DNA from: Escherichia coli
Lineage (GTDB): Bacteria > Pseudomonadota > Gammaproteobacteria > Enterobacterales > Enterobacteriaceae
Length of the DNA stretch: 64,000 nucleotides
Reading direction: 5' to 3' (one strand)
Assembly: GCF_036507355.1 (NCBI RefSeq)
Contig: NZ_AP027877.1
Shown: positions 19,890-50,222 of the stretch, in pieces
How the letters are laid out: each line of letters begins with the position of its first letter
How positions within the stretch are numbered: the stretch's first letter is position 1
Notes under the pieces: generated by a model
What the model was told of the DNA's origin: nothing
Database searches by the model: none
What the model saw: the letters and a program-made list of their open reading frames with translations, nothing else
Made by a program: the position numbers and the translations under genes

Positions 19890-19965
<76 letters not shown>

Positions 19966-20000
19966 TTGGGTGGTCTGTGCCTTACAGCACTTTCAAATTT

Positions 20001-20076
<76 letters not shown>

Positions 20077-20112
20077 TTGGGTGGTCTGTGCTTTACAGCA
20101 CTTTTCAAATTT

Positions 20113-20188
<76 letters not shown>

Positions 20189-34270: not shown

Positions 34271-34804
34271 ATGCGCCTGCTCCCTCTCGTTGCCGCAGCG
34301 ACAGCTGCATTTCTGGTCGTTGCCTGCAGTTCTCCTACGCCGCCGCGTGGCGTGACCGTAGTGAATAATTTCGACACCAAACGTTATCTCGGTACCTGGT
34401 ATGAGATTGCCCGTTTTGATCACCGCTTTGAACGTGGACTGGAAAAAGTCACCGCAACATACAGCCTGCGTGATGACGGCGGCCTGAATGTCATTAATAA
34501 AGGCTATAGCCCTGACAGAGGAATGTGGCAGCAGAGTGAAGGGAAAGCGTACTTTACCGGCGCACCAACTCGCGCTGCGCTGAAAGTGTCATTCTTTGGT
34601 CCTTTCTATGGCGGTTATAACGTTATTGCACTCGATCGGGAATACCACCATGCGCTGGTTTGCGGCCCGGACCGCGACTACCTGTGGATACTCTCCCGCA
34701 CGCCAACCATTTCTGACGAAGTGAAACAGGAGATGCTGGCAGTCGCGACCCGGGAAGGGTTTGATGTCAGTAAGTTTATTTGGGTACAGCAGCCCGGTAG
34801 TTAA
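34271..34804 (+). CDS. blc: Outer-membrane lipocalin Blc
   Basis: 177-aa ORF with lipoprotein signal (LVVACSS). Confidence 0.93.
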
Positions 34805-35118
34805 TGAGTGCTGAGTTTCAGACCAATAATCCCCAATACGATTAACGCCAGACTCGCCAGGCGCATCGGGTTAGCGGACTCACCGAGCAGCACAATGCCG
34901 GTGATGGCCGCGCCGACTGCGCCAATCCCCGTCCACACGGCATAAGCCGTTCCAACCGGTAACGATTTCATCGCCCAGGCAAGTAGCGCCATACTGACAA
35001 TCATCGCCGTCACGGTAATAACACTTGGCGTCAAACGACTAAAGCCGTGGGTATATTTCAGGCCAACGGCCCATACCACTTCCAGCAGACCAGCAATAAC
35101 TAAGATAATCCAGGACAT
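34801..35118 (-). CDS. gdx: SMR-family guanidinium exporter Gdx (SugE)
   Basis: ATG at 35118 ([22 protein letters not shown]..., 105 aa), four TM helices; stop overlaps the blc stop (convergent). Confidence 0.9.
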
Positions 35119-35298
35119 ATCAGGCTCCGGAGAATTGGGGCCGTCCCCGGTGAAAAGAGGCGTTTGCAGGTCGTCCTGCAAAGCTGATGGTTGAACGGAT
35201 ATTTTGCCAGGTGGCAGAGGAATTTCAACTATTACCTTTGTGACTATCGCAAAAAAACAAACGGCACGACACAGCTGTCGTACCGTTATTGCTTATTG

Positions 35299-35556: not shown

Positions 35557-35682
35557 TAGCTGGCAGCGCGGGAGATGGAGTTGCCGAGATGTTTGATGTC
35601 TTCGCCGAAACCGCGAGCGGTGTTACAGCCCGTGAGCAGCGTGCTGGCAAGCAAAACAAGAACGATAAGGCGTTTCATCATC
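35557..35682 (-). CDS. ecnA: Entericidin A lipoprotein (antidote to EcnB)
   Basis: Hand-translated ORF from the ATG-ATG at 35682: [19 protein letters not shown]... (lipobox LTGC), 41 aa, stop TAA at 35557-35559. Confidence 0.8.
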
Positions 35683-35732
35683 TCTGACCTGAATAAGTGA
35701 TGGTGCAGCCTGCAGGCCGCACCACAACCGCA

Positions 35733-36299
35733 TTACTTCACGCGAGAGACGTATTCACCAGAGCGGGTATCCACTTTGATGACTTCGCCGATTTGTACGA
35801 ACAGCGGAACTTTAACCACAGCGCCAGTAGACAGGGTAGCCGGTTTGCCGCCAGTACCTGCGGTATCACCTTTCAGGCCCGGATCGGTATCAACGATTTC
35901 CAGTTCAACGAAGTTCGGCGGAGTAACGGAGATCGGCTGACCATTCCACAGAGTTACGATACACTCTGCCTGATCCAGCAGCCATTTAGCGTTGTCGCCA
36001 ATTGCTTTTGCGTCAGCAGACAGCTGCTCGAAAGTTTCGTTGTTCATGAAGTGCCAGAACTCACCGTCGTTGTACAGGTAAGTCAGGTTCATATCGACAA
36101 CATCAGCGCCTTCAGCGGAATCAGTAGATTTGAAGGTTTTTTCTACGCGAGTACCGGTCAGCAGACGACGCAGTTTAACGCGAGCAAATGCCTGGCCTTT
36201 ACCCGGTTTTACGAATTCACTCGCTTCAACCGCGTAAGGTTCGCCGTCTAACATGATTTTAAGACCAGCACGAAAATCGTTGCTATAGTACGTTGCCAT
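35733..36299 (-). CDS. efp: Elongation factor P
   Basis: 188-aa [27 protein letters not shown]... with the modified-lysine loop KPGKGQA. Confidence 0.97.
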
Positions 36300-36340
36300 A
36301 AGGCCCTCTGAAATTTGTTAATTGGTAGCTAAGCCACAAA

Positions 36341-37369
36341 ATGGCGCATATTGTAACCCTAAATACCCCATCCAGAGAAGATTGGTTAACGCAACTTGCC
36401 GATGTTGTGACCGATCCTGATGAACTTCTGCGTCTTTTGAATATAGACGCGGACGAAAAACTGTTGGCCGGACGCAGCGCCAAAAAGCTGTTTGCCCTGC
36501 GTGTGCCCCGCTCATTTATCGATCGCATGGAGAAAGGCAATCCGGACGATCCTCTTTTGCGTCAGGTACTTACCTCGCAAGATGAGTTTGTCGTCGCACC
36601 CGGATTCTCCACCGACCCACTGGAAGAACAGCACAGCGTAGTGCCTGGTTTGTTGCATAAATACCACAACCGGGCGCTTTTGCTGGTCAAAGGCGGCTGC
36701 GCGGTAAATTGCCGCTATTGCTTCCGTCGTCACTTCCCTTATGCCGAAAATCAGGGCAACAAGCGTAACTGGCAAACTGCACTTGAGTATGTTGCTGCGC
36801 ATCCGGAACTGGACGAGATGATTTTCTCCGGCGGCGATCCGCTGATGGCGAAAGATCACGAGCTGGACTGGTTGCTCACACAACTGGAAGCCATCCCGCA
36901 TATCAAACGTCTGCGGATTCACAGTCGTCTGCCGATTGTGATCCCGGCACGCATCACAGATGCGCTGGTTGAACGCTTTTCACATTCTACGCTGCAAATC
37001 TTGCTGGTGAATCACATCAACCATGCCAATGAGATAGATGAAACATTCCGTCAGGCGATGGCTAAGTTGCGCCGGGTAGGCGTTACTTTGCTGAACCAGA
37101 GCGTTCTGTTACGTGGTGTGAACGATAACGCACAAACGCTGGCAAACCTGAGTAATGCGTTGTTCGATGCCGGCGTAATGCCGTATTACCTGCATGTGCT
37201 CGATAAAGTACAGGGCGCGGCGCATTTTATGGTGAGTGATGACGAAGCACGGCAGATTATGCGTGAGTTGCTGACACTGGTATCGGGATATCTGGTGCCG
37301 AAACTGGCGCGAGAAATTGGCGGCGAACCCAGCAAAACGCCGCTGGATCTCCAGCTACGCCAGCAGTAA
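36341..37369 (+). CDS. epmB: EF-P beta-lysylation enzyme EpmB (lysine 2,3-aminomutase, YjeK)
   Basis: 342-aa ORF with radical-SAM motif CAVNCRYC; divergent from efp across a 41-bp spacer. Confidence 0.94.
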   Translation: MAHIVTLNTPSREDWLTQLADVVTDPDELLRLLNIDADEKLLAGRSAKKLFALRVPRSFIDRMEKGNPDDPLLRQVLTSQDEFVVAPGFSTDPLEEQHSVVPGLLHKYHNRALLLVKGGCAVNCRYCFRRHFPYAENQGNKRNWQTALEYVAAHPELDEMIFSGGDPLMAKDHELDWLLTQLEAIPHIKRLRIHSRLPIVIPARITDALVERFSHSTLQILLVNHINHANEIDETFRQAMAKLRRVGVTLLNQSVLLRGVNDNAQTLANLSNALFDAGVMPYYLHVLDKVQGAAHFMVSDDEARQIMRELLTLVSGYLVPKLAREIGGEPSKTPLDLQLRQQ

Positions 37370-37501: not shown

Positions 37502-37681
37502 AGAGCAACAAACGCAAGTACAGCAACCTGTCATTAAACTGGGAAATTTAATCTTTGCCCGTTGCATAACCTTTAATTATTCATATGCATTGCTGTTGTT
37601 ACTCTTTATATAACTAACACCAATAAGGTGATGCTGCCAACTTACTGATTTAGTGTATGATGGTGTTTTTGAGGTGCTCCA

Positions 37682-37957
37682 GTGGCTTCTGTTTCTATCA
37701 GCTGTCCCTCCTGTTCAGCTACTGACGGGGTGGTGCGTAACGGCAAAAGCACCGCCGGACATCAGCGCTATCTCTGCTCTCACTGCCGTAAAACATGGCA
37801 ACTGCAGTTCACTTACACCGCTTCTCAACCCGGTACGCACCAGAAAATCATTGATATGGCCATGAATGGCGTTGGATGCCGGGCAACAGCCCGCATTATG
37901 GGCATTGGCCTCAACACGATTTTACGTCACTTAAAAAACTCAGGCCGCAGTCGGTAA
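37682..37957 (+). CDS. insA: IS1 InsA (transposition inhibitor / N-terminal part of the InsAB' transposase)
   Basis: 91-aa [43 protein letters not shown]... (zinc finger plus HTH). Confidence 0.92.
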
Positions 37958-38379
37958 CCTCGCGCATACAGCCGGGCAGTGACGTCATCGTCTGCGCGGA
38001 AATGGACGAACAGTGGGGCTATGTCGGGGCTAAATCGCGCCAGCGCTGGCTGTTTTACGCGTATGACAGGCTCCGGAAGACGGTTGTTGCGCACGTATTC
38101 GGTGAACGCACGATGGCGACGCTGGGGCGTCTTATGAGCCTGCTGTCACCCTTTGACGTGGTGATATGGATGACGGATGGCTGGCCGCTGTATGAATCCC
38201 GCCTGAAGGGAAAGCTGCACGTAATCAGCAAGCGATATACGCAGCGAATTGAGCGGCATAACCTGAATCTGAGGCAGCACCTGGCACGGCTGGGACGGAA
38301 GTCGCTGTCGTTCTCAAAATCGGTGGAGCTGCATGACAAAGTCATCGGGCATTATCTGAACATAAAACACTATCAATAA
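37876..38379 (+). CDS. insB: IS1 InsB reading frame (expressed as InsAB' after a -1 frameshift)
   Basis: -1 frame relative to insA; [16 protein letters not shown]...DDE-type catalytic region, 167 aa. Confidence 0.9.
37933..37939 (+). other. IS1 programmed -1 ribosomal frameshift site (AAAAAAC)
   Basis: A6C heptamer in the insA/insB overlap. Confidence 0.6.
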
Positions 38380-38540
38380 GTTGGAGTCATTACCCACCAA
38401 TAATTAACCTTTCTTTTCTGTTTATATAGAGTGAGTACGGCTATTTATGTTATTTTAACAACTATTACTACCAAGCCCATTTATCTGGCTTATAAATTAA
38501 AATTAATTATTTAATTGAGAAATGGTTAGGGAGAACCTAC

Positions 38541-42361: not shown

Positions 42362-43618
42362 ATGAGTGGACTCAAACAAGAACTGGGGCTGGCCCAGGGC
42401 ATTGGCCTGCTATCGACGTCATTATTAGGCACTGGCGTGTTTGCCGTTCCTGCGTTAGCTGCACTGGTAGCGGGCAATAACAGCCTGTGGGCGTGGCCCG
42501 TTTTGATTATCTTAGTGTTCCCGATTGCGATTGTGTTTGCGATTCTGGGTCGCCACTATCCCAGCGCAGGCGGCGTCGCGCACTTCGTCGGTATGGCGTT
42601 TGGTTCGCGGCTTGAGCGAGTCACCGGCTGGCTGTTTTTATCGGTCATTCCCGTGGGTTTGCCTGCCGCGCTACAAATTGCTGCCGGATTCGGCCAGGCA
42701 ATGTTTGGCTGGCATAGCTGGCAACTGTTGTTGGCAGAACTCGGTACGCTGGCGTTGGTGTGGTATATCGGTACTCGCGGTGCCAGTTCCAGTGCAAATC
42801 TACAAACCGTTATTGCCGGACTTATCGTCGCACTGATTGTCGCTATCTGGTGGGCGGGCGATATCAAACCTGCGAGTATCCCCTTCCCCGCGCCAGGAAA
42901 TATCGAACTTACCGGGTTATTTGCTGCGTTATCAGTGATGTTCTGGTGTTTTGTCGGTCTTGAAGCATTTGCCCATCTTGCCTCGGAATTTAAAAATCCA
43001 GAACGTGATTTTCCTCGTGCTTTGATGATTGGTCTGCTGCTGGCAGGATTAGTCTACTGGGGCTGTACGGTAGTCGTCTTACACTTCGACGCCTATGGTG
43101 AACAAATGGCCGCGGCAGCATCGCTTCCAAAAATTGTAGTGCAACTGTTCGGTGTAGGAGCGTTATGGATTGCCTGCGTAATTGGCTATCTGGCCTGCTT
43201 TGCCAGTCTCAACATTTATATACAGAGCTTCGCCCGCCTGGTCTGGTCGCAGGCGCAACATAATCCTGACCACTACCTGGCACGCCTCTCTTCTCGCCAT
43301 ATCCCGAATAATGCCCTCAATGCGGTGCTCGGCTGCTGCGTGGTGAGCACGTTGGTGATTCATGCTTTAGAGATCAATCTGGACGCTCTTATTATTTATG
43401 CCAATGGCATCTTTATTATGATTTATCTGTTATGCATGCTGGCAGGCTGTAAATTATTGCAAGGTCGTTATCGACTACTGGCGGTGGTTGGCGGGCTGTT
43501 ATGCGTTCTGTTACTGACAATGGTCGGCTGGAAAAGTCTCTATGCGCTGATTATGCTGGCGGGGTTATGGCTGTTTCTGCCAAAACGAAAAACGCCGGAA
43601 AATGGCATAACCACATAA
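42362..43618 (+). CDS. yjeH: APC-family inner-membrane amino-acid exporter YjeH
   Basis: ATG at 42362 (MSGLKQELGLAQGIGLLSTSLLGTGVF..., 418 aa). Confidence 0.87.
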   Translation: MSGLKQELGLAQGIGLLSTSLLGTGVFAVPALAALVAGNNSLWAWPVLIILVFPIAIVFAILGRHYPSAGGVAHFVGMAFGSRLERVTGWLFLSVIPVGLPAALQIAAGFGQAMFGWHSWQLLLAELGTLALVWYIGTRGASSSANLQTVIAGLIVALIVAIWWAGDIKPASIPFPAPGNIELTGLFAALSVMFWCFVGLEAFAHLASEFKNPERDFPRALMIGLLLAGLVYWGCTVVVLHFDAYGEQMAAAASLPKIVVQLFGVGALWIACVIGYLACFASLNIYIQSFARLVWSQAQHNPDHYLARLSSRHIPNNALNAVLGCCVVSTLVIHALEINLDALIIYANGIFIMIYLLCMLAGCKLLQGRYRLLAVVGGLLCVLLLTMVGWKSLYALIMLAGLWLFLPKRKTPENGITT

Positions 43619-43633
43619 TCCGGCGTTTCGACA

Positions 43634-44110
43634 TTAATCCTGGCGATCGTCTTTATGATCAAGGCGGTCGCGGTCATCATCCTTTCGCTGGTACTCACCA
43701 TCAAAAGTATTACCGCCACCGGTCCCGGCGCTAAAACCGCCGCCTGGCATGCGAGAAAAGCGCAAATGTGGCATCAACTTCACTGTCAGATGCTTTTGCA
43801 CCGGCGGCAATAAAAGCAGAAGACCGAGGAAGTCGGTGAAAAAGCCCGGTAATAAAAGCAGCAAACCGGCAATGATCAGCGAAACACTTTTAATCATCTC
43901 CGCCGCAGGGTTTTCACCCGCCGCCATTTTTTGCTGCATCAGCACGAAATTCTTAAAGCCCTGGTTACGTACCAGTGACATACCGATAACTGACGTGAAT
44001 ATAACCAGCACGAGGGTCAGCAATACCCCCAATACATGGGCAACCTGAATAAAGATTGAAATCTCAATATAGACATAAAGGAAAATGGCAATAAAAGGTA
44101 ACCAGCGCAA
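43634..44110 (-). CDS. fxsA: Inner-membrane protein FxsA
   Basis: 158-aa ORF MRWLPFIAIFLYVYIEISIFIQVAHV... with charged C-terminal tail; TTG start. Confidence 0.87.
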   Translation of the reverse strand: MRWLPFIAIFLYVYIEISIFIQVAHVLGVLLTLVLVIFTSVIGMSLVRNQGFKNFVLMQQKMAAGENPAAEMIKSVSLIIAGLLLLLPGFFTDFLGLLLLLPPVQKHLTVKLMPHLRFSRMPGGGFSAGTGGGNTFDGEYQRKDDDRDRLDHKDDRQD

Positions 44111-44446
44111 AGGTTTCTCCTGTAATAGCAGCCGGTAAAACCCGGCTACCTGAATGGGTTGCGAATCGCGTTCAGCTTATATTGTGGTCATTAGCAAAAT
44201 TTCAAGATGTTTGCGCAACTATTTTTGGTAGTAATCCCAAAGCGGTGATCTATTTCACAAATTAATAATTAAGGGGTAAAAACCGACACTTAAAGTGATC
44301 CAGATTACGGTAGAAATCCTCAAGCAGCATATGATCTCGGGTATTCGGTCGATGCAGGGGATAATCGTCGGTCGAAAAACATTCGAAACCACATATATTC
44401 TGTGTGCTTAAAGCAAATCATTGGCAGCTTGAAAAAGAAGGTTCAC

Positions 44447-45883
44447 ATGTCAAACAACATTCGTATCGAAGAAGATCTGTTGGGTACCAGGGAAGTTCCA
44501 GCTGATGCCTACTATGGTGTTCACACTCTGAGAGCGATTGAAAACTTCTATATCAGCAACAACAAAATCAGTGATATTCCTGAATTTGTTCGCGGTATGG
44601 TAATGGTTAAAAAAGCCGCAGCTATGGCAAACAAAGAGCTGCAAACCATTCCTAAAAGTGTAGCGAATGCCATCATTGCCGCATGTGATGAAGTCCTGAA
44701 CAACGGAAAATGCATGGATCAGTTCCCGGTAGACGTCTACCAGGGCGGCGCAGGTACTTCCGTAAACATGAACACCAACGAAGTGCTGGCCAATATCGGT
44801 CTGGAACTGATGGGTCACCAGAAAGGTGAATATCAGTACCTGAACCCGAACGACCATGTTAACAAATGTCAGTCCACTAACGACGCCTACCCGACCGGTT
44901 TCCGTATCGCAGTTTACTCTTCCCTGATTAAGCTGGTAGATGCGATTAACCAACTGCGTGAAGGCTTTGAACGTAAAGCTGTCGAATTCCAGGACATCCT
45001 GAAAATGGGTCGTACCCAGCTGCAGGACGCAGTACCGATGACCCTCGGTCAGGAATTCCGCGCTTTCAGCATCCTGCTGAAAGAAGAAGTGAAAAACATC
45101 CAACGTACCGCTGAACTGCTGCTGGAAGTTAACCTTGGCGCAACAGCAATCGGTACTGGTCTGAACACGCCGAAAGAGTACTCTCCGCTGGCAGTGAAAA
45201 AACTGGCTGAAGTCACTGGCTTCCCATGCGTACCGGCTGAAGACCTGATCGAAGCGACCTCAGACTGCGGCGCTTATGTTATGGTTCACGGTGCGCTGAA
45301 ACGCCTGGCTGTGAAGATGTCCAAAATCTGTAACGACCTGCGCTTGCTCTCTTCTGGTCCACGTGCCGGCCTGAACGAGATCAACCTGCCGGAACTGCAG
45401 GCGGGCTCTTCCATCATGCCAGCTAAAGTAAACCCGGTTGTTCCGGAAGTGGTTAACCAGGTATGCTTCAAAGTCATCGGTAACGACACCACTGTTACCA
45501 TGGCAGCAGAAGCAGGTCAGCTGCAGTTGAACGTTATGGAGCCGGTCATTGGCCAGGCCATGTTCGAATCCGTTCACATTCTGACCAACGCTTGCTACAA
45601 CCTGCTGGAAAAATGCATTAACGGCATCACTGCTAACAAAGAAGTGTGCGAAGGTTACGTTTACAACTCTATCGGTATCGTTACTTACCTGAACCCGTTC
45701 ATCGGTCACCACAACGGTGACATCGTGGGTAAAATCTGTGCCGAAACCGGTAAGAGTGTACGTGAAGTCGTTCTGGAACGCGGTCTGTTGACTGAAGCGG
45801 AACTTGACGATATTTTCTCCGTACAGAATCTGATGCACCCGGCTTACAAAGCAAAACGCTATACTGATGAAAGCGAACAGTAA
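44447..45883 (+). CDS. aspA: Aspartate ammonia-lyase
   Basis: ATG at 44447 ([34 protein letters not shown]..., 478 aa); [10 protein letters not shown] signature. Confidence 0.96.
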
Positions 45884-50137: not shown

Positions 50138-50213
50138 GCGCCCCGTTGCCCGGATAGCTCAGTCGGTAGAGCAGGGGATTGAAAATCCCCGTGTCCTTGG
50201 TTCGATTCCGAGT
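50138..50213 (+). tRNA. pheU: tRNA-Phe (GAA)
   Basis: GCCCGGATAGCTCAGTCGGTAGAGCAGGGGATTGAAAATCCCCGTGTCCTTGGTTCGATTCCGAGTCCGGGCACCA, 76 nt with encoded CCA. Confidence 0.96.
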
Positions 50214-50222
50214 CCGGGCACC

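Follow-up and report, generated by a model that had tools for sequence, protein, structure and literature searches.

Face-to-face promoters are probably embedded in the 5′ coding ends of the divergent efp and epmB genes of Escherichia coli

The genes encoding elongation factor EF-P (efp) and its beta-lysylation protein (epmB, also named yjeK) are transcribed away from each other across a 41-bp spacer in the 64,000-nucleotide stretch of E. coli DNA analyzed here (the window), and the promoter of each gene probably lies within the 5′ coding end of the other, with the two promoters firing towards each other. This reading, which we favor with good though incomplete confidence, includes both the presumed activity of two conserved promoter-like motifs and a presumed damping of epmB by head-on transcription. 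It is based on transcript starts and double-stranded RNA (dsRNA) published for E. coli K-12 and on a conservation footprint at synonymous sites found throughout the Enterobacterales. That at least one promoter must reside in the coding region of the neighboring gene had been proposed in the initial annotation of this locus, and this proposal is borne out by the mapped K-12 starts, both of which lie there, and by conserved promoter-like hexamers within codons 4-16; that the promoters would face each other and that the mRNAs would overlap as antisense partners had not been foreseen.

According to the list of open reading frames, efp (188 aa) occupies positions 35733..36299 on the minus strand, with its ATG being the complement of 36297..36299, and epmB (342 aa) occupies positions 36341..37369 on the plus strand, so that the two genes are adjacent, lie on opposite strands, and diverge. 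EF-P is 100% identical to the K-12 protein and scores 253.6 bits against the NCBIfam equivalog TIGR00038 (cut-off 185.8), and EpmB scores 534.2 bits against the equivalog TIGR03821 (cut-off 369.3), a model that begins at EpmB residue 15 and thus leaves the first 14 codons outside the conserved core. In K-12 MG1655, epmB (4374629..4375657, minus strand) and efp (4375699..4376265, plus strand) are also separated by 41 bp. Since the window and K-12 are identical over the 240 bp aligned around the spacer, data obtained with K-12 apply directly. Of 5425 E. coli genomes, 5422 match a 161-bp core at 99% identity or more, whereas only 1453 do so for the surrounding 1.7 kb.

The comparative set was obtained by an EF-P scan of reference genomes and comprises 80 Enterobacterales loci, from Escherichia to Photorhabdus, Providencia, Erwinia, Yersinia, and Budvicia. 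Wherever a locus holds both genes, they diverge, and the spacer lengths of the 80 rows all fall within 35-47 bp, 52 of them being 40 or 41 bp; this constancy is the strongest sign that the short spacer is not due to chance. Both start codons are kept in 80/80 rows and the EpmB alignments run from residue 1; this rules out a mis-annotated epmB start, and the short spacer is therefore not an artefact of start-codon choice or annotation. The divergent arrangement with its 41-bp spacer, as initially annotated, is confirmed by the coordinates, by the same geometry in K-12, and by the equivalog scores of both proteins. Among 15 divergent pairs in 100 kb of annotated K-12 sequence (two 50-kb stretches), spacers have a median length of 172 bp (range 38-475 bp), and only one does not exceed 41 bp; the efp/epmB spacer is therefore in the short tail of this distribution, but it is not unique. 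The exception is the pair formed by yqfB (minus strand) and bglA (plus strand), with a 38-bp spacer (K-12 3043312..3045101; positions 43312..45101 of stretch L092), which is itself a candidate for promoters embedded in the coding sequence of a neighbor.

Several other features were observed around this locus and elsewhere in the window. A copy of IS1 (approximately 37630..38395) lies between epmB and yjeJ, with an InsA reading frame at 37682..37957 and an InsB reading frame at 37876..38379, both matching the IS1 transposase model; neither K-12 nor the best-matching E. coli genome carries the element at this place, the epmB-yjeJ gap in them being 394 bp. On the other side, a Guanidine-II (mini-ykkC) riboswitch at 35136..35182 on the minus strand (50.4 bits; Rfam gathering threshold 32) is located just upstream of the guanidinium exporter gene sugE/gdx. 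The latter (minus strand) is convergent with blc (plus strand) within 34271..35181, their reading frames overlapping by 4 bp (34801..34804), and gdx-blc is listed among the K-12 convergent excludons reported with ExcludonFinder (PMC12288877). Farther away, three tRNA genes in tandem, which share one Rfam score and lie approximately 111 bp apart, occupy 19893..20188 on the minus strand, and a fourth tRNA gene (50148..50220) is found on the opposite, plus strand.

The spacer itself (36300..36340) accommodates the 5′ leaders and ribosome-binding regions of both genes. A good Shine-Dalgarno sequence, GAGGG, precedes efp on the minus strand (36308..36304), and the ATG of epmB is directly preceded by the A-rich GCCACAAA, without a Shine-Dalgarno sequence. 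The mean column entropy of the spacer is 0.74 bits, as compared with 1.05 and 1.34 bits at the third codon positions of efp and epmB, respectively. A consensus scan of 35600..37000 found no promoter at a threshold of 9/12 matches, a setting under which extended -10 promoters and those with a weak -35 element go undetected. We also used a position weight matrix based on approximate sigma-70 frequencies, for which matches as strong as those described below occur about once per kb by chance, and within the spacer it returned only poor hexamers, the best of them without the key -12/-11 or -7 bases. A promoter lying wholly in the spacer and giving a leaderless or short-leader mRNA was also rejected for the Enterobacterales, where GTTAAT, TTAATT, TAATTG, and TAAGCC do not have the key -10 bases. 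As judged from these scans, the spacer contains no complete promoter and consists of just leaders and ribosome-binding regions. Nor do the two genes possess back-to-back promoters sharing an intergenic control region, the conserved promoter motifs being located in coding DNA. The earlier argument that there is too little room for two promoters holds, as 41 bp cannot accommodate two -35/-10 pairs plus leaders. An Rfam search of the leaders gave no match at E<=1, and their folding revealed no structure beyond that of shuffled sequences (z-scores of +0.6 to +1.0, weaker than controls), so that a riboswitch, an attenuator, or another RNA structure in the leaders was rejected.

Conservation at synonymous sites points to the coding sequences on both sides of the spacer. 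When methionine and tryptophan codons are set aside, the only invariant third codon positions among all 188 efp codons are those of codons 5, 6, 12, and 14, and the only ones among the first 300 epmB codons are those of codons 4, 5, 12, and 13. The codons concerned include TAT, AGT, ATA, and AGA, which are rare or non-preferred, and the positions, when read on the opposite strand, spell promoter elements for the other gene, although translation initiation is another possible source of constraint at the start of a gene.

For efp, the candidate promoter P1 would comprise a -10 hexamer TACAAT (36350..36355, minus strand), which is the reverse complement of epmB codons 4-5 (ATT GTA), and a -35-like hexamer TTCTCT (36374..36379, minus strand), which is the reverse complement of epmB codons 12-13 (AGA GAA). 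The predicted start, at 36342/36343, lies opposite the epmB start codon and would yield a leader of about 43 nt. TACAAT or TATAAT is found at the -10 position in all 80 loci; epmB codon 4 is ATT in 79/79, and codon 5 is GTA or the rare isoleucine codon ATA with an invariant third base, next to codons 2-3, in which the amino acid changes freely. The -35-like element is TTCTCT in 74 loci, TTCTCG in the other 6, and matches TTGACA at only 3/6 positions. Of the epmB codons beneath it, codon 12 is the rare arginine codon AGA in 73/79 and codon 13 is GAA in 79/79, and its spacing to the -10 hexamer is fixed at 18 bp even though epmB codons 7-11 vary in amino acid. The GC-rich stretch between the -10 hexamer and the start can be read as resembling growth-rate-controlled promoters.

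For epmB, the proximal candidate is an extended -10 element, TGCTATAGT, located at 36281..36289 on the plus strand and corresponding to the reverse complement of efp codons 4-7. Its predicted start (36295-36298) lies opposite the efp start codon and would give a leader of approximately 43-46 nt. The pattern TGnTAnnnT occupies the same position in 80/80 loci, as TGCTAGAAT in 29, TGCTATAGT in 28, TGGTACTAT in 16, TGCTATAAT, the Yersinia variant, in 4, and TGCTAAAAT in 3, and among the 490 nt preceding epmB this site has the top position-weight-matrix score. Conserved EF-P residues (Y4, S/T6, and N7) dictate three of the five fixed bases, and at efp codon 6 the C is in addition what codon preference would favor. 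At residue 5, EF-P carries Y, S, or F, encoded by TAT, TCT, TTT, and AGT, and the third base is T in 80/80 loci, which provides the A at -11 of the epmB hexamer. Upstream, at -44..-30 of this candidate, lies the nearly invariant block CATGATTTTAAGACC (36252..36266, plus strand), which is the reverse complement of efp codons 12-16 (GGT CTT AAA ATC ATG). These codons show the lowest third-position entropy of any 5-codon efp window (0.08 bits, gene mean 1.05), and the minor leucine codon CTT within them is kept in 79/80 loci. The block may serve as the -35/UP region of the candidate epmB promoter.

Transcript data published for K-12 place further starts deeper inside both genes. In these data, whose U00096.2 coordinates were converted by adding 1977 to obtain U00096.3 (verified on the efp coordinates), Conway RNA-seq defined a 459-nt overlap at 4373589-4374048 (U00096.2; Table S1, PMC7373196). 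The efp-sense start at 4373589 corresponds to window position 36432, which lies 91 nt into epmB, and that of epmB, at the other end of the overlap (4374048), corresponds to position 35973, 327 nt inside efp (PMC7373196). In the sequence, we located a -10-like hexamer 7-8 nt upstream of each of these two starts. For efp, this upstream promoter (P2; 36432..36445, minus strand) contains TATATT at 36445..36440, from which a start within 1 nt of the mapped one is expected. For epmB, the distal promoter (35937..35973, plus strand) consists of CTGACC (35937..35942), a 17-bp gap, and TACACT (35960..35965), and is the second-best site by position weight matrix. In 80/80 loci, both conserved candidates rank within the highest-scoring 0.4% of window positions, whereas the TATATT of P2 is not conserved and scores well in only 4/80, and the distal epmB promoter is weakly conserved (23/80), with synonymous sites there varying freely and G at -11 in half of the loci. 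The K-12 inner starts are lineage-specific, their promoters not being conserved in Salmonella, Yersinia, or Photorhabdus, and lengthen the overlap to 459 nt. The mapped epmB-sense start also falls inside a 184-codon, GTG-initiated reading frame (35697..36251, plus strand) that is antisense to nearly all of efp and is probably the shadow ORF of a gene with biased codon usage.

RNA duplexes have been recovered from this overlap in K-12 by two methods, which together cover 35975..36408 of the window (Table S1d/e, PMC7373196). The p19-captured cluster 'efp yjeK', classified as a 5′ overlap (Huang et al., 2020; PMC7373196), extended over 4373678-4373880 in exponential phase (U00096.2; window 36141..36343; 804 RPM) and over 4373613-4373880 in stationary phase (window 36141..36408; 543 RPM), and the species captured by p19 are products of RNase III (PMC7373196). 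The left edge of the exponential-phase dsRNA (4373678, window 36343) coincides with the predicted start of efp P1. In the anti-dsRNA pulldown of Lybecker, the locus MS-211, labeled 'Divergent', spans 4373672-4374046 (U00096.2; window 35975..36349; PMC7373196), and its edge at 35975 is near the distal epmB start. More recently, ExcludonFinder (2025) placed epmB-efp among 16 divergent excludons present in at least 50% of 58 RNA-seq samples (PMC12288877). A further 5′ end reported by Dornenburg, supported by 19 reads, lies at 4373707 on the plus strand of U00096.2 (window 36314), 15 nt before the efp ATG (PMC7373196); just 3/6 bases of its -10 region match, and we take it for a minor start or a product of processing. 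The column for Thomason antisense transcription start sites is blank for the efp/yjeK dsRNA cluster (Table S1, PMC7373196), which may weigh against an active proximal epmB start in efp codons 1-2 under those conditions. Full-text literature on efp or epmB start sites yielded nothing beyond these published data. The two promoters face each other both as mapped in K-12 (36432, minus strand; 35973, plus strand) and as predicted from the conserved motifs (approximately 36342, minus strand, and 36296, plus strand), and the efp and epmB transcripts overlap as antisense partners according to published tables, not re-analyzed reads. The mapped inner starts, together with the dsRNA, indicate that both genes are transcribed from inside the other and that their transcripts pair in vivo; the head-on overlap at this locus is already documented for K-12. 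Transcription starts well inside the coding regions, with no role for the spacer, had been named in the initial annotation as the result that would count against it; they fit the first of its two alternatives, that of a promoter embedded in the neighboring gene, and do not refute the finding.

We propose that the two conserved motifs would act as working promoters of ancestral origin, efp P1 being held with more confidence than the proximal epmB candidate. From the conserved predicted starts, facing each other approximately 47 bp apart, the transcripts would overlap across the whole spacer, and from the K-12 inner starts this overlap would be extended, with the overlapping RNAs pairing in vivo and being cut by RNase III. 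Head-on polymerase traffic and duplex cleavage would then mainly damp the weaker epmB promoter, keeping EpmB scarce relative to abundant EF-P.

As an alternative to the damping, the overlap may be a harmless by-product of compaction, in which the two genes became closely packed at an early time, their promoters came to lie in the coding DNA of the neighbor, and antisense pairing and RNase III cleavage are tolerated as noise without any effect on EF-P or EpmB levels, a possibility that we rate at a little below even chances. Consistent with it, a Pefp reporter kept a constant ratio of approximately 10:1 to PefpL under every condition tested, as expected of constitutive-like expression, and EF-P goes along with ribosomal factors. 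In the RNase III proteomics work, the authors saw no clear general link between cleavage and protein level, and EF-P changed to just 0.5-0.7x in RNase III (rnc) mutants (PMC7373196); this decrease is not specific, a similar fall having been recorded for other proteins, including ribosomal protein S14 (rpsN). Other short divergent spacers also exist in K-12, such as the 38 bp of yqfB/bglA. A mere by-product is less easily reconciled with a spacer length held within 35-47 bp across the order and with the fixation of both embedded motifs at synonymous sites, but what these two features show is selection on the promoters themselves, and they do not extend to the interaction between them.

A different objection concerns the proximal epmB promoter. 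It is conceivable, although we find it doubtful, that epmB is transcribed only from starts deep in efp, with the TGnTAnnnT pattern and the block over codons 12-16 arising from constraints on efp itself (translation initiation, low mRNA structure, codon choice). The sole published epmB-sense start that we found is indeed the one 327 nt inside efp, the dsRNA cluster has no Thomason antisense start assigned to it, and conserved EF-P residues account for three of the five fixed bases, AGC and ACC being preferred codons. However, with the distal promoter present in 23/80 loci and carrying G at -11 in half of them, other species would be left without an epmB promoter. Constraints on efp also do not readily explain the T at the third base of codon 5, kept in 80/80 loci across four codons and three amino acids, including the non-preferred TAT and AGT, or the retention of the minor codon CTT in 79/80, and the same pattern, a -10 element plus a block 17-19 bp upstream, occurs on both genes. 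Far less probable, in our assessment, is co-regulation of both genes by a protein that would occupy a compact operator shared between them in the spacer. A stretch of the spacer (TTTTKTGGCTWAGCTACCA) is conserved and holds a short palindrome, TAGCTA, and this stretch is more conserved than synonymous sites; yet the conserved stretch corresponds to the efp transcript start and the epmB translation-initiation region, which account for the conservation, and neither a regulator nor condition-dependent control of Pefp was found in the literature. The second alternative of the initial annotation, a shared compact regulatory element, is accordingly not upheld, given a spacer without a good promoter match, an Rfam match, or a stable fold, and given the constant Pefp:PefpL ratio.

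The embedded face-to-face arrangement would go further if it had been selected across the Enterobacterales, in a looser form in other EpmB-encoding bacteria, as a device fixing the ratio of the two products, in which the strong efp promoter would continuously damp epmB, itself weak and devoid of a Shine-Dalgarno sequence, by way of colliding polymerases and cleavage by RNase III; we regard this extension as unlikely. The listing of EpmB homologs covered Enterobacteriaceae only, and distant taxa were reached by a search of representatives, in which EpmB proteins with 43-54% identity were looked up in their contigs. In five distant loci with a readable efp (EpmB 43-51% identical), the genes are divergent in 5/5, with spacers of 19, 61, 64, 69, and 96 bp, and efp forms an operon with epmA in two of the five. 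In a sixth locus, the gene upstream of epmB is co-directional and does not match EF-P. Hexamers resembling a -10 element (TAGAAT, TACAAT, GATAAT, TAAGAT) were observed 5-10 nt upstream of the epmB start in the distant relatives L084, L085, L087, and L089 (at approximately 340-356, 510-528, 103-118, and 2483-2500, respectively), which suggests leaderless or near-leaderless epmB mRNAs in these relatives. In addition, epmB begins with ATGATA in L085, L086, L087, and L089; its reverse complement is TATCAT, a -10-like hexamer for efp that occupies the position of the E. coli TACAAT in an alignment anchored on the ACC codon that follows.

Among known systems, the closest parallel is provided by divergent excludons, a concept introduced for Listeria, with E. 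coli sets available (Conway 2014; Lybecker 2014; PMC7373196; PMC12288877), which likewise consist of opposite-strand neighbors with 5′-overlapping transcripts, the duplex of which is recovered in vivo and cut by RNase III, and in which epmB-efp is explicitly listed (PMC7373196, PMC12288877). Excludons are, however, defined by mutually exclusive expression, whereas efp behaves as a constitutive, ribosome-like gene, and epmB-efp was placed there by overlap. [quoted passage not shown] Face-to-face promoters with a similarly short overlap are found in scbA/scbR of Streptomyces coelicolor (53 bp between starts, as compared with approximately 47 bp predicted for efp/epmB; PMC3134472) and in pR/pL of coliphage 186 (cited in PMC3134472). 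In these two pairs, sitting-duck collision is expected to dominate, with the weaker promoter being hit more (PMC3134472), but both are repressor-controlled switches, in contrast to efp/epmB, which has no known switch and has longer overlaps from its inner promoters. Compared with these systems, the order-wide synonymous-site footprint of both candidate promoters is a tidy addition rather than a new kind of system.

The efp/epmB locus thus offers a clear case of promoter signals placed in the first codons of a neighboring gene and held at synonymous sites order-wide, of little import beyond the locus itself. It calls for caution in recoding or deleting efp or epmB, in choosing cloned 'native promoter' fragments, and in reading polar effects of knock-outs, as deletion of the 5′ end of either gene removes the promoter of the other. 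If the overlap sets the EF-P:EpmB ratio, the locus would be one more example of transcriptional interference between housekeeping genes and would introduce no new principle. If it does operate as a fixed-ratio device, EpmB would stay at a catalytic level, scaling inversely or sub-linearly with the demand for EF-P.
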